A stretch of 64,000 bases of DNA from Octopus sinensis (GCF_006345805.1 NC_043007.1:28272001-28336000); one strand, 5' to 3'; shown: positions 19,125 to 59,048, counted from the first letter of the stretch. Translations and numbers: made by a program. The notes: generated from the letters alone by a model not told the origin.

Positions 19125-22100
19125 CATCATCATTATCATCATTTAACATCCACTTTCCATGCTGGCATGGGTTAGATGGCTTGGCTGAAAACTGGTAAGC
19201 CAGAGAGCTGTGTCAGGTTCCAATCTGATTTGGCAAGGTTTCTACAGCTGGATAAGCTTCCTAACAACAACCTCTCAAAGAGTGTAGTGGGTGCTCTTAA
19301 CATTCCACCAGCATGGGTGCCACTGATGTGACACTGGCATCGGCCATGACTACAATCTCACTTGGCTTGACAGATCAATACAAGCATGGTATACTACCAA
19401 AGGTATTAGTCAACTGTCACTGGCTCCATGAAGCCAAATGCTCGAACATTGCATTTTATGAGCCACTGGCACAGGTGCCAGTCAGACACCACTGGCATTG
19501 GCCACAACTACAATTTCACTTGGCTTGACAGATCTTCTCAAGCACAGTTTAACACCCAACTTTTGAAGGGTGCTTTATATGTGCCAGTTACACAACACTG
19601 GCATCAGCCACAACTACAATTTCACTTGGCTTCTCAAGCACAGCATATCACCAAAGATCTTGGTCACTTGTCATTGTCTCCATGAGGCCCAATATTTGAA
19701 GAACATGCTTCAACAGCTTGTCTACCTCTTCCACAGGTTCCCTCCACTGTTAGAATGTGGCACTTCATCACACAGCTGTCCTCCTTCATATGCATTACAT
19801 GACCATACACATAGTTGTCTCTCTTGCACACCATGTATAACACCTCTTATCCTCAATTTTTCTCTCGGACACTTACACTCTGTTGTGCATGCACACTGAC
19901 ATTACACATCCAGCAGAACATACTAGCTTCATTCCTTACTAGCCTGTGCATGTTCTTGGCCACCACAGCTTATGTTTCACTGCTGTGTAGCAGGGCTGTT
20001 TACATGCTGGCATCATACCTTTTACTCTGAGAGAGAGACCATTTGTTACCAGCAGAGATAGGAGCTCTCTTAGCTTTGCCCAACTAATTCTTATTACAGC
20101 AGCTATGCTCTTGGAGCATCCACCCCCCACTACTAAGTTGGTCACCTAGGTAACAGAAGCTATTGATTACTTCTAGTTTTCCCCTCTGCCGTGTTATAGG
20201 ATCTATTTTCTGTACATTTTTAGTGTTAATTGTACTTGTGCACCTTTCACACATAAAAACTATCTTCCCTGTTAACCTTCCTCTGATATTGCTGCACCAT
20301 TTATGTGTCCATAGCTTACACTGGGTACATCTTATGGAGTTTCTACCTACGCCTTTTTACAGACTGAGCAGGGCCATCTCCCCGAAAGGATTTGTGATTT
20401 GTCTGCCTTCCTACTTACTAAGACTTCGGTTTTTGCTAGGTTAACTCTAAGGCCCTTTGATTCTAGACCTTGTTTCCATACCTAGAACTTCTTCTCTAGT
20501 TCTGGTAGTGATTCAGTTATAAGAACAAGGTCATCAGCATAGAGGAGCTCCCAGGGGCAGCTTGCCTTATTGCTTGGAGGACTATGATGAACAAGAGGGG
20601 GCTGAGGACTGACCTTTGGTGAACCCCTACTTGTACCCTGAATTCTTTGCTATACTCATTGTCAACCCTCACCTTACTGACAGTATGCCTGTACATGGCT
20701 TGTACAGCTCACACCAACCACCCATCTAGCCCTAGTTCCTGCATTGACCACAATATAATGGAGCAGAAGACCCTATCAAGGGCTTTTTCCAAGCCAACAA
20801 AAGTCAAGTATCGAGGTTTATCTTTGGCTAGGTATTTCTCCTGCAGCTGCCTTACCAGAAATATAGCATTGGTGGTGCTTCTCCCTGGCACAAAACCAAA
20901 CTGCATCTCATCTTGACTAACTCTCTCCCTAATTAGTTGGGCTATGACCTTCTCAATGATTTTCATCACCTGATCCAACAATTTGATACCTTTGCAATAA
21001 TTTCTATCCAAGGCATCACCTTTACCTTTGTACCAGTTGACTATGGTGCTGCTACACCAGTCATTGTGTATGACACTTTGTAAACCACTTGGTTAACTAT
21101 ACAGATGACTAGACCATAACCCACATTGCCAGATATTTTAAGCATCTCACTAGTGATTCCTAATGGGTCATATCCTTAATTGTTTTATCTACCAAGGTAC
21201 TGTCGATTCAGATAGCTGGTCCCTCAGTTGGGTCAACATTTGACAGACTCTCCTCCTCTCATTCATTCGCTTTATTTAGTAGCCTTTCATAGTGGCATTT
21301 CCAAGCCTCTTTCTTTACAGTATCATTAAATGCAAGTGAACTGTCATCCCTGCAGACTCAGTTCTCTCATATGACATCGCAATTTTCTCTCATACACTGT
21401 CTTGCAATCTGGAACACTTTAAGTTTCTGGTCCTCACAGCACAGAACATTAGCAAACTTCTTTACTGCTTCCCCTCTGGCTAAGTATACCTGTCTCCTTG
21501 CTTCCCTTCTGGCTATCTAATATAGTTCCCTACTACCACCAGACTGCCAGTCCTTCCAAGCCTGTTTCCTTTTTCTAATGGCCCTGTCAACTACATTGTT
21601 CCACCACCATGTCACCTTCAGTTGAGAGGAGACTTTGCACCAGCCACATATCCCTCAACAAGTTGTTCCAAAGGAACCTCCAGTTGTCCTCAACATTATA
21701 TGTCACTATATCCTTCTCTTTTTTGTCAAATGCTTTAAGTAATATGTCTCTGAATCTCTGTCCATTCAGAGGATCTTTAAGCTTCCAGACCCTTCTTTTC
21801 TACACTGGTTGTCTTCTGGGCAGCCATTTAGTCCTGATCTTGAAATCGCTGGCAACTAACCTATGCTGGGGAGGGCATGCATTCTTCACCTGAGAAAGCT
21901 TTGGCCTTTATAAGCAGCCATCATTCCCCATTTCCTGGTGAGAATGTGGTCAATTTAACTAGTGTGCCCACTGGACTGGTAGGTTTCCTCAAGTCAGTTT
22001 TGCATATCATAAGGTCTTTGCATCACAAAACTCCAGCAGCTTGGTTCCCTCCTCATAGCAGGAACCAAATCCGTTGCCACCATGCACACCATGGTAACTA

Positions 22101-47357: not shown

Positions 47358-47679
47358 GATGTCATCAAGGCTTTTTGTATTCTTAGGAATTATTTACCTA
47401 TTCTTAATTTTGTTTACATTCTGAGATCATGTCCCTAGTTCAGATTCTCATTTTGCTTCCAACTCTTTAATGAAAGATCGGTTGATACTAAGCTCACTGA
47501 TTCAGATGTCTGGGTTTATGAAAATCCTCCTCTTTAATTCTCCCTTGCTTCCTTTCTTCCATTCATGTTTGCTCCTTTTTGGTGTGTAGCATTTTCTCCT
47601 TCCTACAGCAAGAAATTTAATGTTCAAAACAAGAGGAAAATTAAGCTTATGTTGCATTTGATTCAATGTATCATTATAA

Positions 47680-48710
47680 GATTCTGTGACCATTAAGATA
47701 TGCTGAAAACCCAAGCTGTCACATGTGCAAATGAATGTTGAACAGACCATTATCTCATCTCCTCCACCATGAAAATGAAGATTCCACAAAAAAGGAAACA
47801 CCAAAATCAGAACAGCAGCAAGAAATTTAATGTTCAAAAATTTCAGGATGCTAAATGATTCCAGCAAAATCCCCAAGAATATCTGCTCAAAACCAACCAA
47901 AAAATTCCATCATCACCACCTGCAAAGAAACACTTGGTTTCAAGACCAGGGGACATCAAAAATGGTTTGATGAAAATTATGAACAGCTTCAATAACTCAA
48001 CAACAAAGGAAATGCCTTCTTTGATTCTTCAATGCATGATCAGGCTCCTCTCAAAAGTGATGATATCACCACCTTTAAATCTAATGTTGCTGTCAATGCC
48101 AGATGGAAGAAACACTTTGAAGATTGGTAAGATTTTGTTTAGCTTAATAGATAAGCACTTCCCCCCATACAAAAAGGTTTAGCAAAATATTTAATAGGCA
48201 TACCCCAAAAATTTCCTTTAGCTGTGCACCCAATGTAAAAAAGATTTTAGTAGGTAGGCCCACACCTGAGATAGAGGCAGGATACTCATGTAGGAATAAG
48301 AACAACATATCCACTGAATGGCCATTGTAAAATAGAGATTGTTGTATATGAGACAGAGATAAGACCAAATGGGAAACCAAACATGTGAAAGAACATGGAA
48401 ACAACTGAAGAGCCCTTCAAAACCCACTATAACAACCATAATTCCTCCTTCAACATCCTGGAAAGATGTTACACCACAACCCTGACCAAGCACGTATGGT
48501 TATTGAAAGAAAGTACCACTGAATACAGCATAAAATGGAAGATTCTGCAGAACTGTAAAGTATACTTCAACAGCAGTAGGAAGTGCAGATTATGCTCAGC
48601 TGAGAAAAGAGCAATTATAAAGAGCACCCAACTCCCAGGCATTTACCTGAATATCAGAAGTGAAATTTTTAATCCTTGCCCAGATGAAAGGAAGTACATC
48701 CTATCATAGT
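47680..48710 (+). mobile_element. Penelope-like element relic (RT thumb plus GIY-YIG endonuclease; start approximate)
   Basis: IGK..FSLIDKHFP, KISFSC.PN, FKTHYNNH.SSF, LTKHVW.LK, IKWKIL, CRLCSAEK, LNIRSE..C. Confidence 0.75.
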
Positions 48711-51749: not shown

Positions 51750-51985
51750 ACCAATCCGACCGTGGCCGTTGCCAGCCTCGCCTGGCACCTGTGCAGGTGG
51801 CACGTAAAAAGCACCCACTACACTCACGGAGTGGTTGGCGTTAGGAAGGGCATCCAGCTGTAGAAACATTGCCAGATAAGACTGGAGCCTGGTGCAGCCT
51901 TCTGGCTTCCCAGATCCCCGGTCAAACCGTCCAACCCATGCTAGCATGGAGAACGGACGTTAAACGATGATGATGATGATGATGA
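51750..51985 (+). mobile_element. RTE 3' tail within (TA)n
   Basis: Nearly identical to 54893-55132. Confidence 0.85.
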
Positions 51986-52012
51986 TATATATATATATAT
52001 ATATATATATAT

Positions 52013-52591
52013 GGTTATCAGTAATAATATAGGGTGAAATTAATTAATTTGGAATAATCATTAATTTCACCAAGTAGATTTCGGCATGTAAAAGCCTCAT
52101 TCGAGGAAAGTTTAAGTAATACTAAGTAATTAAGGGTTTAGCAACGATTTGCCTCACCACACACCGAATTTAGAAATAGCAGTCAAAGAGTTATAGCTAT
52201 TCTTTCTACTAAAAGGGAGATCTTTAATATACAATTATTCATAATTGTAGTGTCCTACGCTGATGAGAAAAAAAGTTGGGTAAGACATAATTATCTAATT
52301 CTTATGCTTTCCTAAAACTTAATTTCGAAACGTACGTCCAACCCATGCTAGCATGGAAAGCGGACGCTAAACGACGATGATGATGATGATGATGACGTCC
52401 GTAGGTGACTTAAAATTGTATGATAGATTGCCGTCATTTCTTTCTCTCTTGCCTGTCTGTGTTTGCCTTTCAAGTGCTGTGGTTTTACTGAGATCTCCCC
52501 TTTAGTAGAAAGAATAGCTATAACTCTTTGACTGCTATTTCTAAATTCGGTGTGTGGTGAGGCAAATCGTTGCTAAACCCTTAATTACTTA

Positions 52592-52595
<4 letters not shown>
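52013..52595 (+). mobile_element. Non-coding hammerhead-bearing element (Penelope pLTR/retrozyme-like) with 105-bp inverted repeat
   Basis: Inverted repeat 52119-52223 / 52491-52595 (1 mismatch); (TA)n on both sides. Confidence 0.75.
52254..52405 (+). ncRNA. Type I hammerhead ribozyme, interrupted by an RTE tail (52340-52394)
   Basis: CCTACG-CTGATGA-GAAA..TTTC-GAAA-CGTACG-TC-CGTAGG after removing the insert and one copy of ACGTCC. Confidence 0.8.
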
Positions 52596-52633
<38 letters not shown>

Positions 52634-52636
<3 letters not shown>

Positions 52637-52980
52637 ATCATTATAATCATCATCATCGTTTAACGTCCGCTTTCCATGCTAGCATGGGTTGGATGATTTG
52701 ACTGACATCTGGCGAACCAGATGACTGCACCAGGATCCAATCTGATCTGGCAGAGTTTCTACAGCTGGATGCCCTTCCTAACACCAACCACTCCAAGAGT
52801 GTAGTGGGTGCTTTTACATGCCACCGGCATGAAGGCCAGTCAGGTGGTACTGGCAATGACCACGCTCAAATGGTGCTTTTTATGTGCCACCTGCACAGGA
52901 GCCAGTCCAGCTGCACTGGCAACGACCTTGCTCGAATGTTTTTTCATGTCCCACCAGCACAAGTGCCAGTAAGGTGACAC
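52634..52980 (-). mobile_element. RTE 3' tail
   Basis: Conserved tail with (CAT)n. Confidence 0.85.
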
Positions 52981-53020
52981 AGATACATATATATATGCAT
53001 GTACATATATATGTATGTAT

Positions 53021-55132
53021 ATATTCCTGGTAAGGCAGCTGCAGGAGAAATACCTAGCCAAAGATAAGCCCCTGTACCTGGCTTTCGTTGACATGGAGAA
53101 AGGTTTTGATAGGGTCCCCCGATCCCTTATCTGGTGGTCAATGAGGAAACTAGGGATAGATGAATGGCTGGTGAGGACTGTGCAAGCCATGTACAGAGAT
53201 GCCGTAAGTAAGGTTAGGGTTGGCAACATGTACACAGAAGAATTCAAAGTAGAGGTTGGGGTCCACCAGGGTTCAGTACTCAGCCCCCTCCTATTTATCA
53301 TAGTACTCCAGGCAATTACGGAGGAATTCAAGACAGGCTGTCCCTGGGAGCTCCTCTACGCTGACGACCTTGCTCTTATTGCTGAGTCACTATCAGAACT
53401 GGAGGAGAAGTTCCAGGTGTGGAAGGAGGGTTTAGAATCAAGGGGCCTTAGAGTCAACCTAGCTAAAACCAAAGTACTAATAAGTAGAAAGGTAGACAAT
53501 CCACAAATATCTTCAGGAAGATGGCCCTGCTCGATCTGTAGAAAAGGTGTAGGTAGAAACTCTATAAGATGTACCCAGTGTAAGCTATGGACACATAAGA
53601 GGTGCAGCAATGTCAAAGGTAGGCTAACTGGGAAGATAGTTTTTGTATGTGGCAGATGCTCGGGAGCATTAACCTCCGAAAATCTGCAGAAAACAACTTC
53701 CGTCACTTTCCAGGGGGAAAAACTAGAAGTAGTTGATAGCTTCCGTTATCTAGGTGACCAAGTCAGTAGTGGGGGTGGGTGCGCTGAAAGTGTAACTGCT
53801 AGAATAAGAATAGCCTGGGCAAAGTTTAGGGAGCTCTTACCTCTGCTGGTGACTAAAGGCCTCTCGCTCAGAGTAAAAGGCAGACTGTATGATGCGTGTG
53901 TACGAACAGCCATGCTACATGGCAGCGAAACATGGGCTGTGACTGCTGAGGACATGCGTAAGCTCGTGAGGAATGAAGCCAGTATGCTCCGATGGATGTG
54001 TAATGTCAGTGTACATACTCGACAGAGCGTTAGCACCTTGAGAGAAATGTTGTACCTAAGAAGCATCAGTTGTGGTGTGCAAGAGAGACGATTGCGCTGG
54101 TATGGTCATGTGGCGAGAATGGATGAAGATAGGTGTGTGAGAAAGTGCCAATCCCTAGCAGTTGAGGGAACCCGTGGAAGAGGTAGACCCAGGAAAACCT
54201 GGGACGAGGTGGTGAAGCACGACCTTCGAACTTTAGGCCTCACTGAGGAAATGACCAGAGACCGAGACCTTTGGAAATATTCTGTACGTGAGAAGACCAG
54301 GCAGGACAAGTGAGCCCAGCCCACTTATGAATGCCTTTCCTCCCTTGGACACAAAGACCGGTTGAGGCAAGCGAAGTCGATATAGAACCTCATCCGACGA
54401 CAGACACCCATCCCAACCCCCCATGCTTGCGAAGACATGTTGGGGCAAGCGAAATCGAAACCGAATTGAACCAGCCAGGATCCCTGGCCTGGTGGTACGT
54501 AAAAAGCACTATCCGACTCGGGGCCGTGGCACGTAAAATACTCCAATGCGACCGTACGACAGGCACCCATGCCAACCCCCTTTGCTTGTGAAGACATGTT
54601 GGGGCAAGCGAAATCGAAATCGAATTGAACCAGCCAGGATCCCTGGTCTGGTGGTACGTAAAAAGCACTATCCGACTCGTGGCCGTGGCACGTAAAATAC
54701 TCCAATGCGACCGTACGACAGGCACCCTTGCCAACCCCCTTTGCTTGTGAAGACATGTTGGGGCAAGCGAAATCGAAATCGAATTGAACCAGCCAGGATC
54801 CCTGGTCTGGTGGTACGTAAAAAGCACTATCCGACTCGTGGCCGATGCCAGCACCGCCTCGACTGGCTTCCGTGCCGGTGGCACATAAAATACACCAATC
54901 TGACCGTGGCCGTTGCCAGCCCCGCCTGGCACCTGTGCAGGTGGCACGTAAAAAGCACCCACTACACTCACGGAGTGGTTGGCGTTAGGAAGGGCATCCA
55001 GCTGTAGAAACATTGCCAAATTAGACTGGAGCCTGGTGCAGCCTTCTGGCTTCCCAGAACCCCGGTCGAACCGTCCAACCCATGCTAGCATGGAGAACGG
55101 ACGTTAAACGACGATGATGATGATGATGATGA
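53021..55132 (+). mobile_element. Young 5'-truncated RTE-PHD LINE with uninterrupted RT ORF
   Basis: Open frame to 54313 (LYADD, PHD, YLG, RGRGRPRKTW); CpGs retained; (TA)n flanks. Confidence 0.95.
54400..54843 (+). repeat. 159-bp tandem repeat (~2.7 copies) in the LINE 3' UTR
   Basis: gaagacatgttggggcaagcg at 54431, 54590 and 54749. Confidence 0.9.
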
Positions 55133-56385
55133 TATGTGTATTTATAAATGTATGTATATATATGTACATGTATGTATATATATATCTATATTTCAAATAT
55201 ATTATACTGCACCAAGAACCACTTTTTATTATTCTACTATATATATATATGTATGTGTGTATGTGTATATGTATGTATGTATGTGTGTGTATGTGTATAT
55301 ATGATATGTATATATATATATGTGGTCACTGTTACTACGGCAACAGTGAGAGAATTAAAATAGTGGAGGTGGGGGCAATTACAATTTCTCAGATCCTTAA
55401 ACAGTCACTCCCGCTGGCAGTGGTATGTCTTAGGGAAGGAAAAATTTATAAAAAGAATTTTTTTTCTCTGTGAACAGATCTGATTTTGATTAGTCAAAAA
55501 ATTGATGACGTTTTACCTCAGTAGTCAAGCTTGTCGCCATGCTTGATTGGTTTCCCTACAAGATACAGTTATGGGTTAGGTCTAATTCTGATTCGTTAAA
55601 AAATTGATGACGTTTTTCTTCCGTGGTCAAACTAGCCACCTAACAGGATACAATTATGGGTCAGATCTAATTTCGATTCGCTAAAAAATTGATGACGTTT
55701 TTCTTCCGTGGTAAAACTTGTCGTTCTGCTTGGCTGGTTTCCTAAACAGGATACAGTTGGGGGTCTTTTCCTTAGAATCGTTGAAGCTTGGTTTTGATTG
55801 GTTTGGAATTATATGACGTCAGTGAACAGTGCAAGAGTACTGACTTAACTGATATAAACCCAACAATCACTAGTTGACTAAAATTACGACAACCAAGAAT
55901 CACTACTGTTGCTCCCATCGGAACACAAGGTAAAATCTATAATGAACTCCTGCACTACACTTGACAAAACAGTAAGGAACGACTTACACCTTATAATATA
56001 TTTTTCGCCTTTTCAAGAACATGGATTCTATTGAATGTATATAGCATGGATTCTATTGAATGTATGAAACAATTATGAACTATTCCATTATACTCTTTAT
56101 TATTAAAAAATTCTTTTTGGTAAGGTTCGTTATTTCAAGAGCCGAAACATGTAAAAATTAAAATTTATCTAATATAGTGGCATTTTCAAACTTCTTTTTT
56201 ACAAATATATACCCACTCGTATACGATCTAATCTTATTATAAATATATATATATATATATATATCACAATCAAGGAACGGCCATAATAGGCCTTTCACCC
56301 ACTAGAAATAACAGCCAAAAGCTTCAACCGCAAAATAACATCAATTCCGTAAACCAGGAGAAAATTAAAAAACATTTACCCTGTA

Positions 56386-56492
56386 ATTTCTTATACGATG
56401 CACCGTTTCATCTACTGGTTAATGGTAAACTAACCTGATTAAATTAAATCAAGCCAATCTACCATAAGCCCTTAGATTCATCAGTAAGAAAT
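56386..56492 (-). ncRNA. Type I hammerhead ribozyme (mirror copy)
   Basis: Reverse complement of 56517-56623. Confidence 0.85.
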
Positions 56493-56516
56493 AGCCAAGT
56501 CGGTTCCGACTTGGCT

Positions 56517-56623
56517 ATTTCTTACTGATGAATCTAAGGGCTTATGGTAGATTGGCTTGATTTAATTTAATCAGGTTAGTTTACCATTAAACAGTAGATG
56601 AAACGGTGCATCGTATAAGAAAT
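56517..56623 (+). ncRNA. Type I hammerhead ribozyme
   Basis: ATTTCTTA-CTGATGA-ATCTA..TAGAT-GAAA-CGGTGCATCG-TA-TAAGAAAT; predicted cleavage after A56615. Confidence 0.85.
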
Positions 56624-56861
56624 TACAGGGTAAATGTTTTTTAATTTTCTCCTGGTTTACGGAATTGATGTTATTTTGCGGTTGAAGCTTTTGGCTGTTA
56701 TTTCTAGTGGGTGAAAGGCCTATTATGGCCGTTCCTTGATTGTGATGTTGAACTTAAAAATGGTCTATGACTATTTAATTTTTTCCCACTAGGCCGCTGG
56801 TGGCAAAAAAATTCTACAAAATTTTTTGCCACCCTATATTGATTATATATATATATATATA

Positions 56862-59048
56862 TGGTGGATTCTCTCATCGAAGACGATGAATGAGGGTTCA
56901 TTAAATAACCTTCAACAATTCCTAAGCCCTGTGACACCGCATGTGTACCTTCAATCCAGCAGATGTCTTGCACACTTTCTCGCAAATGGTATACCTGCAT
57001 GTATTTGTTGGTTCAAAATGTCTTCTCAGGTGGACAGCTAACCCAGCTTTGCTTCGTGCTTGGAACCCACAGTGACACACACAATCATTGTTTGGTGGAT
57101 TTTGCTGATGTGTTGCTTTCAAATTTGCACAAAGGGCGTCCCTATGACGAAGGCAGTTACTTTCAAATTCTCTAGTCTTTAGAAAACACATTTTCCTCCA
57201 TTTGCTGCAATCCCTTGCTGCACTCTCCCAGGAGCTCAGAGCAATGTCACAACGCTTCAGATTGTCTTTTAGTTTGTCCTTGTAATGAAGAAGAGGACGC
57301 CCTGTTGGACGGGAAGAATTTGTCAATTGCCCATAAGAAAGCTACTTTGGAACTCTTGAGTCATCCATTCTTACGAGATGACCAGACCACCGCATTTGTA
57401 TCTTAAGCCTTACGATTTGACAATTGCTTTATAGCCTTTTCGACCTCCGACATGGATGGACTGTCAGCAAGATTCTCGATGGTTGGCTTCTGAGGAAGAT
57501 TATCAATCACTTCCTGATCCACTGTCGATTCTCTGTTTAAAACATTTGAAAAATGTTCAGCCCAGCGCTTAGTAATCTCTTTCATATCGGTGAGGAGAGT
57601 GCCATCTGACAAAAATATTGGAGAGGCCCCCTTTGAAATGGGACCAAAGACACCTTTGACATTTTGGTAGAAAGATTTAAAATCGCACTTATCTGCTGCA
57701 TCTTGTAAGGACTGGGCTTTCAACTTCCACCAGTTTTGTTTCATTTCCCGGAGTCGAGATTGTGCCAACTTTTTGGACATTCGAAAAGCCTTGTGTTTCA
57801 CTGAAGAATTTTTGTCAGTAATCCACACTTGATGGGTTTGATGCATGTTTCTGAGCAAAGGGAGGATGGTTGGATCATTTTCATCAAACCAATCTTGGTT
57901 CTTCCTTCGAACATAACCTAATGACTCTTTGGCAGAGTCATACACTGCAGTTTTAAACTCTGACCAAGATGCCTCAATGTCATTCCCACATATAATGGAG
58001 GACAGCTTTTCGTCAGTAACCGTTTGAAACGAGTGCATGGTCTCCTTAACCTTCAACTTGTCCACATCAATTCTCTTGATGAGAGAACTACGTTGATTTC
58101 AAACAGGGCATTTGATTTTCATCTTGATTGTGGAGCAGATCAATTTGTGATCTGACCAACATTTCCCTATACTGTAAGAGCATGTAAGAGTTACATCTTG
58201 TCTATCAGAACGACATACAATGACATAGTCAATGAGATGATAATGATTAGACCGGGGATGCTTCCAACTGGCTTTCTTGCAATTAGGTAGCTGAAAGTGA
58301 GCAAAAGCTCAAACTCACTGCAAAGAGACAATAAAAGAACACTGTTTGAGTTGACTTTACCAATTCCGTGTGAACCAATGACATTGCTCGAAGATTGTGT
58401 ATCACTACCTACACGAGCATTGAAGTCACCTAAGACAAACAGCTTATCTTGAATCGACACCTTGTTAATCTGTTCACGTAAAGAGGAGTAAAAACTTTCT
58501 TTTAGCTCATCAGATGAATTAAGTGTAGGTGCATAGCAACTAAAAAATGTGGCATATTTGTCTTTTCCTACCGCAACACGCAAGGACATAAGTCTGTCAT
58601 TTATACCAACAGGCAGAGAGTCAAGATTTTTGGCAATATCACTTCTGATGGCAAAACCAACACCAGATTCACGTTTCTCAGATCTTGCTTTTCCTATCCA
58701 ATAGAAAGTGTACCCACCTTCAACTTCCTCTAACTGTCCCGTATCAGCAAACCTGGTTTTGGAAAGAGCTGCAATACCAATTTTATGATGCTTCAACACA
58801 TGTGCTATGATAGTGGTTCTTCATTCAGGGTTCTTTTTGTTATCTTGGAGTGTTCTCACATTCCAAGACACAATGAACATATTTGTTCCATGTATTTTCT
58901 TTCTACTTTTGATTTGGGTGCAATATTGGATGCCCAGACATCTGCACCTGATGACAGAGACAAGAGCAAGTAAGCAATGTTTAGGTCATTTTTTATAGAC
59001 CCCCTCCCCATGAAGAGGAAAGCAGTGCCATCCTAAAAAGGGCTGCTT
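56862..59048 (-). mobile_element. RTE LINE with C-terminal C2H2 fingers; RT core deleted
   Basis: EN (ALSKTRF, GVGFAI, GDFNARVG) and linker to KQLSNRKA, fused to RWSGHLVRMD..GRP..HCGFQARSKAGLAVHLRRH..ICEKVCKTSAGLKVHMRCH; (TA)n at both ends. Confidence 0.9.

Follow-up and report, generated by a model that had tools for sequence, protein, structure and literature searches.

Two fold-back insertions with long-stem-II hammerhead ribozymes in the Octopus sinensis genome, probable products of distantly related Penelope-like elements

A 64,000-nt stretch of the Octopus sinensis genome (GCF_006345805.1 NC_043007.1:28272001-28336000), referred to below as the window, contains two fold-back elements, A and B, each carrying a type I hammerhead ribozyme motif with a stem II of 60-68 nt. 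Ribozyme A lies near 52.3 kb and ribozyme B near 56.5 kb; between them stands the 3' part of a long interspersed nuclear element (LINE), and upstream of A the remains of a Penelope-like element (PLE) (Table 1). When the window was scanned with a type I hammerhead descriptor that permitted a stem II of up to 150 nt, two complete matches were obtained, at 56525 (+) and 56484 (-); at 52260 (+) the scan detected a core for which no stem I lay within reach. Both complete matches also passed a stricter setting of the descriptor, under which 50 block shuffles yielded no match. The plain pattern CTGATGA-N40-70-GAAAC occurs five times against 0.33 expected, three of the five being the cores of A, B and the inverted twin of B; the matches at 20537 and 30989 were rejected as LINE-coding-like and failing the stem test.

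Table 1. Features of elements A and B and of their surroundings (positions counted from the first letter of the window)
Feature	Position	Strand	Remarks
Hydra-clade PLE remains: C-terminal part with linker and endonuclease, decayed	48123..48706	+	protein relatives
Tail-bearing arm of element A	52013..52223	-	truncated before ribozyme: 105 nt shared, 106-nt tail; (TA)n 51985-52012
Terminal 12-bp hairpin of A (52071-52033), then CTATATT	52026..52071	-	z -4.6
Short, tail-less, ribozyme-bearing arm of element A	52224..52595	+	starts 36 nt upstream of core; (TA)n 52593-52633
Hammerhead A, type I, stem III interrupted	52254..52405	+	descriptor, folding
Parts of hammerhead A	stem I (6 bp) 52254-59/52400-05; core 52260-66; stem II span 52267-52326 (60 nt); GAAA 52327-30	+	
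61-nt insertion in cleavage region of A	52340..52400	+	LINE 3' tail ending in (GAT)n, plus second copy of 6-bp target duplication
17-nt motif common to A and B	52527..52543	+	15/17 identical; counterpart 56690-56706
LINE 3' part with reverse-transcriptase frame	53030..55132	+	RVT_1, E 3.7e-22; family from which the insertion in A came
Short arm of element B	56263..56503	-	inverted copy, final 97 nt missing; its 5' end lies 19 nt before the core
Inverted twin of hammerhead B	56386..56492	-	core at 56484; one base differs, within 7x7 loop
Long arm of element B	56506..56843	+	starts 19 nt upstream of core; one-sided 97-nt tail 56747-56843; then (TA)n
Hammerhead B, type I	56517..56623	+	descriptor, folding
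Stem I of B, 8 bp	56517-24/56616-23	+	
Core, stem II and GAAA of B	core 56525-31; stem II span 56532-56599 (68 nt); GAAA 56600-03	+	
Inner helix of B stem II extension, 19 bp	56544..56587	+	folding, variants
Stem III of B, 4 bp and tetraloop	56603-14	+	predicted cleavage after A56615
Terminal 12-bp hairpin of B (56799-56833), then CTATATT	56799..56840	+	z -4.6

Judged by the type I core (CUGANGA, GAAA, UH and stems I-III), B and its twin are complete. The stem II of B runs through 5 bp, a 7x7 internal loop, 19 bp and a 6-nt loop; its inner helix is uninterrupted (56544-56562/56569-56587), with 14 Watson-Crick pairs, five G-U pairs and no mismatch in the window copy, the majority allele of family B having one A-A mismatch there. 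A preliminary description of this DNA had given B a stem II of about 68 nt with an inner G-U-rich hairpin, and the fold bears this out (-27.1 kcal/mol, z -6.7, equalled by 0 of 500 shuffles). The span of about 60 nt proposed for A, with its pairings, is likewise confirmed, though its fold is weak (-9.7 kcal/mol, z -2.3, equalled by 14 of 500 shuffles) and the antisense strand folds slightly better (-11.2 kcal/mol); here 4 bp are followed by short helices, split by 2x2, bulge and 1x1 loops, and by an 11-nt loop. The B extension reaches its -27.1 kcal/mol on the ribozyme strand against -11.8 on the other strand, and its helix contains five G-U and no A-C appositions (one-sided p 0.03 in a post hoc comparison; 7 to 0, p 0.008, with two polymorphic changes included). 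Because of this strand asymmetry, the B extension does look selected for RNA pairing. Forcing the ribozyme fold on B costs 1.9 kcal/mol for the ribozyme alone and 2.8 in the whole long arm, and the palindromic helix III region forms a 12-bp self-duplex of -17.5 kcal/mol; as far as such models go, B could self-cut as a monomer, with its 4-bp stem III, or as a dimer via the 12-bp palindrome. In a read-through transcript, the calculated fold-back duplex is 133 kcal/mol more stable than the ribozyme fold.

What kind of insertion leaves a hammerhead in such surroundings? Both elements are inverted repeats (241 bp with 1 mismatch in B, 105 bp with 1 mismatch in A), and in both an inverted, 5'-truncated copy is joined to its partner at the 5' end while a tail of 97 nt (B) or 106 nt (A) remains one-sided; the three core-holding arms begin 19, 19 and 36 nt upstream of the core. 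The unit described for PLEs consists of an inverted 5'-truncated copy, a one-sided tail of 30-40 bp and a microsatellite target (Craig et al. 2021, PMC8557442), and the earlier suggestion that the ribozymes sit in retro-insertions is upheld by PLE anatomy in both A and B. Between the two arms of B there is one difference in 241 positions, and at 56542 both have the minority allele, which accounts for about 8% of the depth of run X1; they are therefore taken to derive from one template and one event, and a recent insertion would fit. One contig of run X8 also ends at the B short-arm end, running into (TA)n, and 19 contigs of run X1 depart from the reference within 10 nt of it. Small hairpins are found at or beside the pivot of both fold-backs (56498-56511 and 52230-52249).

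The 3' ends of A and B share two signals. Each element closes with a perfect 12-bp hairpin followed by CTATATT, and the 17-nt motif precedes this hairpin by 99 nt in A and 93 nt in B. Seven of the 12 hairpin pairs are identical between A and B, five are changed on both sides and none is broken, and the two tails provide two of the three non-simple perfect hairpins of at least 12 bp in the window (a fourth match is the B inverted repeat itself). The 17-nt motif, with up to two mismatches allowed, has no occurrence outside the four arms of these two elements, the copies at 52527 and 56690 being the true counterpart pair. The last 60-70 bases of A and B align better than 299 of 300 shuffles. The two hammerheads had been called unrelated: this holds for the ribozymes, whose local score is reached by 165 of 300 shuffles, and for the extensions (156 of 300), but not for the element 3' ends (1 of 300). 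To judge from these sequences, A and B are probably distant kin, and the terminal hairpin with CTATATT would be a candidate start signal for reverse transcription. Could the elements nevertheless be DNA fold-backs or Helitron-like elements, not derived from PLEs and holding a chance or captured hammerhead? Their long inverted repeats would suit this view, and a 3'-terminal hairpin with a short conserved motif recalls Helitron ends. However, both families have complete hammerheads (0 in 50 shuffles), and the inverted arms without their tail differ in length between A and B, which points to truncated complementary DNAs (cDNAs) rather than to fixed terminal repeats, so that such an origin appears very improbable.

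The reading preferred here, at a probability of roughly 0.7, is that A and B are insertion products consisting only of the pseudo-long terminal repeat (pseudo-LTR) of two distantly related PLE families and made by two-site priming on nicked (TA)n. A PLE protein would bind the uncut RNA and nick both strands of a (TA)n tract. Two positions inside the RNA would then serve as start points for reverse transcription, the first immediately after the terminal hairpin and CUAUAUU, the second about 100 nt upstream. Both cDNAs would extend to the RNA 5' end, which lies 19-36 nt before the hammerhead core, and their joining head to head would give a fold-back with a one-sided tail. The hammerhead would be the usual PLE type I ribozyme. 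Its long stem II would be an enlargement that is tolerated because it lies beyond the core; in B the RNA strand would hold it paired, most likely to prevent 60 additional bases from disturbing the fold of the junction. If transcription ran outwards from the pivot, B could cleave itself as a monomer; in read-through transcripts it would instead be buried in the 241-bp duplex and undergo adenosine-to-inosine (A-to-I) editing. In the anole Poseidon element PAc, two reverse-transcriptase start sites define the tail, priming takes place in a stem-loop, the target is AT-rich and the template is uncut RNA (PMC11167929). Unlike A and B, PAc has an open reading frame (ORF) that begins in stem II, as well as a tail of 30-40 bp; no open frame starting in the stem II or the tail of A or B was found.

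Does the long stem II itself define a family? The preliminary description made it a structural hallmark, which would imply a homologous functional module, e.g. a protein-binding or docking domain. Both spans, 60-68 nt against <=24 nt in a published descriptor, speak for this, as do the probable kinship of the elements, the strand-specific pairing constraint on the B helix, and the fact that no listed joint deletes just the B extension (one rare joint deletes 48 bases including GAAA). Yet the two extensions show no sequence similarity, their loop layouts are unlike, the A fold is weak, and the B inner helix has a majority mismatch and no two-sided change. The extensions agree solely in being long; a family defined by stem II and common to both elements is not supported, and a homologous module seems unlikely. 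The distal stem II, which lies outside the catalytic core, would have grown separately, or diverged beyond recognition, in the A and B families. As for the wider architecture said to match, the agreement extends to the long stem II, the palindromic stem III, the inverted repeats and the (TA)n flanks, but not to the extension layouts or the placement of GCTATTTCT. This motif, listed as a neighbour of both ribozymes, is the 5' strand of stem I in B, and its match in A lies 128 nt downstream of the cut.

Ribozyme A has suffered an accident of its own, overlooked in the preliminary description. Its stem III, which before the event had 2 bp and a palindromic tetraloop (self-duplex of 8 bp, -9.8 kcal/mol), is interrupted by a 61-nt insertion, which shares 95% identity with the 3' tail of the LINE whose end lies at 55132, recurs at more than 10 other places in the window and left a 6-bp target duplication (52334-39 = 52395-400). 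With the insertion removed in silico, A folds as a normal hammerhead with a complete core. With the insertion present, the duplicated bases can close a 4-bp stem III around a 61-nt loop, and the notion that A was simply destroyed was dropped for this reason. Since the rebuilt fold lies 6.0 kcal/mol above the best fold in the ribozyme alone and 12.7 in the whole arm, A is probably crippled, yet not formally destroyed, as far as folding models can tell. The LINE tail landed within a few bases of the A cleavage site, and its 5' junction has five bases of microhomology (52334-52400).

How do these ribozymes compare with known ones? The descriptor published for animal PLE pseudo-LTR hammerheads specifies a stem II of 3-7 bp with a loop of 3-10 nt (<=24 nt in total; Cervera and De la Pena 2014, PMC4209133). 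A and B are like the motifs of that paper in their type I topology, CUGANGA/GAAA/UH core, palindromic helix III and U-rich 5' flank, and B also in the closeness of opposite-strand motif pairs and in high copy number. They are unlike them in that the stem II of 60-68 nt exceeds the limit of the minimal class, that B has a stem III of 4 bp, that there is no extra base after A9, and that the window copy of B has A-U at 10.1-11.1, where A has G-C (a C11.1 variant of B is common, its partner being unreadable in the variant table); no cephalopod sequence was present among the alignment rows examined in the paper. B and A would work like a PLE pseudo-LTR hammerhead but fall outside the minimal class as defined. 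A long helix II has precedent in the spike-moss elements PLE-X1_sMoe (9 bp with a 35-nt loop, 53 nt) and PLE-X1_sTam (4 bp with a 29-nt loop) (PMC8557442 File S2). These resemble A and B in their long helix II region, but they are plant, endonuclease-less and rDNA-targeted elements (i.e. directed at ribosomal DNA), are marked by their authors as deviating, stay below 60-68 nt and give no sign of kinship. The 'long helix II' of PMC13725137 has 6-8 bp, and PMC10085705, PMC6765202 and PMC8967140 provide general background only.

Whether an existing model already covers A and B can be answered in part. Rfam returned no match at gathering score in the 64 kb, its 33 matches up to E 10 over 51900-57000 include no hammerhead family (microRNA matches were rejected as caused by the long inverted repeat), and the spans lie beyond the animal descriptor; on the other hand, long loop-II PLE hammerheads are already described, as are non-autonomous hammerhead-bearing PLE derivatives. 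No prior report of a cephalopod long-stem-II hammerhead was found among the papers searched. Family members gave no match in the genome contig collections and viral contig collections scanned, and 15 metagenome descriptor matches were rejected, all 15 being chance matches with 0-1 bp in stems I and II.

The PLE relic at 48 kb had been put forward as a possible mobiliser. It resembles GIY-YIG-labelled clusters, with 2,710 relatives at E <=0.001 in a full scan, and its relatives align to 48123-48706; its own motifs are decayed, Pfam found nothing in either of its two frames, and a word-index protein search with it gave 0 of 23 candidates. The longest listed relative, P0135, has a reverse transcriptase and, by eye, Hydra-clade marks (a C-terminal endonuclease, no CCHH, a CxCx5C linker, CxxC, CxH, DKT). 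By eye, the relic follows Hydra-1_Obim closely, and an 11-residue stretch is identical. This likeness, together with the editing pattern described below, would by itself make an octopus the likely host. Hydra-clade elements target (TA)n and carry type I hammerheads with a 3-4 bp stem III near the 3' end (PMC8557442). A and B are like them in the (TA)n target, the inverted truncated copy, the presence of a tail (though of 97-106 nt against 30-40 bp) and the type I hammerhead, and B in its 4-bp stem III, A having had 2 bp. By contrast, the hammerheads listed for this clade have a short stem II (7 bp with 8 nt in Hydra-1_Obim), and the Hydra-1_Obim 3' end shows no resemblance to A or B by eye; a likeness of the A/B end motif to the first bases of this element lies in the opposite orientation and was taken as chance. 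Of four short A/B motifs sought in the supplement of PMC8557442, three had no match and the fourth had one outside the Hydra file, although line breaks there may hide matches. The (TA)n target is not diagnostic of Hydra, because Naiad PLEs also target (TA)n, and cephalopod Naiads are reported with 'half-core' hammerheads. The short A/B motifs were not found in the Naiad consensus files, in a comparison that covered the ends of Naiad_Ovul and Naiad_Esco in part. At the Naiad_Obim 3' end (PMC8557442 File S5), a GAAA appears by eye to be flanked by two half cores like those of a hammerhead; their pairings interleave, and the motif may be permuted or nested. A relaxed core search behind the relic uncovered no credible hammerhead, and the relic does not align with A or B, 3' flank scores being reached by 43-189 of 300 shuffles. 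The proposal of mobilisation by the relic is therefore half sustained: the relic is a PLE of a (TA)n-targeting, hammerhead-bearing clade but has no sequence link to A or B, and by analogy the Hydra clade is a fair candidate for the class of mobiliser. A 24-bp direct repeat stands upstream of the relic, at 47606 and 47816.

Family B extends well beyond the window. The B stretch is present in 20 of 24 listed runs from five organisms, and its alignment, on 340 bases, to the contigs of four runs at 80% likeness gave 13,001, 5,356, 1,257 and 54 contigs; members occur in all four, and the family must be very abundant, although depth is not a copy number. None of the 20 runs is recorded as RNA, which has no bearing on expression. 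Variants were compiled from 26 rows, reduced to 21 sites after four rows at 4% solely in X8 were dropped and two rows at one site merged; the outermost 30 or so bases at either end of the reference have no entries in the variant table, whose first row is 36 bases in. No variant falls on the 16 core and stem III positions 56600-15. As to covariation in the extension, a test raised in the preliminary description, the variants of the B inner helix occupy four sites, none of them two-sided; three keep pairing by a change on one side, a proportion that is not significant because 24 of 38 possible transitions would keep a pair. Donor- and acceptor-like signals can be seen by eye at 56630-56707, 56630-56792 and 52405-52475, which would delimit introns of about 70-80 nt (or 160 nt), near the 75-bp Penelope intron; splice sites downstream of the A and B ribozymes were dropped, since no joint supports splicing.

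A number of observations weigh against the PLE reading or against one of its parts. The tails, at 97-106 nt, exceed the 30-40 bp reported for PLEs, a target duplication is unreadable inside (TA)n, and no frame for a reverse transcriptase or GIY-YIG endonuclease is attached to A or B at the two loci. Kinship between A and B rests on two short signals and n = 2, because similarity over the whole elements is weak (global score reached by 9 of 500 shuffles, local by 34 of 300). Regarding catalysis, the pairing probability of B stem III is near zero in the nearest-neighbour ensemble, and the lack of variants at 16 core positions is not significant alone, with about one expected. Selection on the extension is called into question by the post hoc character of the wobble test on B, by the lack of strand asymmetry in A, and by an inner helix that is not less variable than the sequence downstream (4 sites in 44 nt against 11 in 192) and whose commonest variant, 56548 (56-72% of depth in three runs), is an A-A mismatch costing +4.7 kcal/mol. 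In addition, variants 56595 (36-42%) and 56599 (8-32%) break proximal stem II unless their partners 56536 and 56532 change, and these partners lie in the region where variants could not be listed. Finally, the signs of editing discussed below come from a few low-depth contigs of one run (X8), which is RNA by guess, with no DNA from the same animal.

Were A and B copied from full PLEs or from something smaller? They might instead be ORF-less mini-elements, similar to retrozymes and with a unit of about 490 nt in B, served in trans by a Hydra-type or other (TA)n-targeting PLE protein; the terminal hairpin would then be the recognition signal, there would be no autonomous parent with the same pseudo-LTR, and the whole would be a sub-case of PLE mobilisation. 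A contig of run X8, at depth 5.5, runs from the tail end at 56844 across 157 letters of other sequence and on to 56512 with no change of direction, giving a period of about 490 nt, and a 490-nt tandem unit or circle of B is possible on this evidence. The very high abundance of B, the want of a frame in stem II or tail that sets A and B apart from the anole PLE, and the existence on record of non-autonomous pseudo-LTR derivatives all lend themselves to this possibility. Against it, the junction is a single contig, its 157 letters may be no more than the flank that separates two insertions into the same TA tract, tandem units are absent from the window, where both copies are head to head, and 5'-truncated copies of an autonomous PLE would look the same. 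Of the small non-autonomous family suggested in the preliminary description, the high copy number of B stands but the non-autonomy does not follow. Animal non-LTR retrozymes, proposed to be non-autonomous PLE derivatives (PMC7229834; bioRxiv 10.64898/2026.07.22.740005), are likewise non-coding, of high copy and equipped with a type I hammerhead, but their units are repeated head to tail, their hammerheads are canonical or minimal and they give rise to circular RNA, whereas A and B are head to head and the tandem hint amounts to one contig. The mini-element origin is thus a tentative one, somewhat less probable than not, within the PLE framework.

A different question is whether the ribozymes are still of any use to the elements that carry them. 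In X8, 9 of 12 A residues are read as G over 56583-56612 in one contig loose end, two of them in GAAA; none of the nine sites follows a G, while two of the three spared A do, and A-to-G changes without a preceding G are the pattern of A-to-I hyper-editing. Family B appears, from these sequences, to be hyper-edited in this way, and editing would be expected because of the 133 kcal/mol by which the read-through duplex exceeds the ribozyme fold. The edited contig, which is also the one that links its tail to the ribozyme start through 157 letters, has a nearly unchanged tail, with two differences. Several X8 contig loose ends read A runs as G, over 56583-56612 and 56670-56830. A ribozyme thus sequestered and apparently edited in its core might be a dead passenger, its extension a product of local fold-back duplication and its spread independent of cleavage. 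In line with this, core mutants of the anole PLE did not alter insertion in vitro (PMC11167929), 8 of 9 tested retrozyme dimers failed to cleave, copies keep the sequence upstream of the cut, and A tolerates an insertion at its cut. But in two families that have diverged the core is still perfect and none of the three stems has been lost, the B extension has G-U without A-C, and no core variant is common, which makes a wholly passive role improbable.

It is conceivable, if doubtful, that the story is larger. Octopus-like genomes might harbour abundant ORF-less mini-PLEs of about 490 nt whose hammerheads, active as monomers and with a stem II of 60-70 nt, escape both the descriptor and Rfam; these would be captured by (TA)n-targeting PLE proteins through the covarying 3' hairpin and CUAUAUU, host A-to-I editing of their fold-back copies would destroy the catalytic core, and the same blind spot could explain the 'half-core' hammerheads of Naiads and mean that PLE ribozymes are undercounted. 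More modestly, ribozyme counts and claims of hammerhead-less PLE clades may err on the low side, because an abundant family with a perfect core, B, is missed by Rfam and by limits on stem II. The covarying terminal hairpin offers a testable candidate RNA signal for the start of PLE reverse transcription, known so far from one in vitro system. Ribozyme B combines a stem III of 4 bp with a 56-nt extension that can be taken out, and so lends itself readily to the question of protein-free cleavage by an animal PLE hammerhead. Nothing in A or B amounts to a novel type of system.

The remaining features of the interval concern the LINE and its downstream flank. The LINE at 53030-55132, which we take to be RTE-like, has a 427-codon open frame with RVT_1 and a PHD-like finger (below the cut-off). 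Behind it come three tandem units of 159 bp (54397-54844) and then a tail of (GAT)n, many fragments of which are scattered across the window. Between it and element B, at 55456-55764, lie three to four diverged units of 85-102 bp with a common AAAAATTGATGACGTTTT motif.

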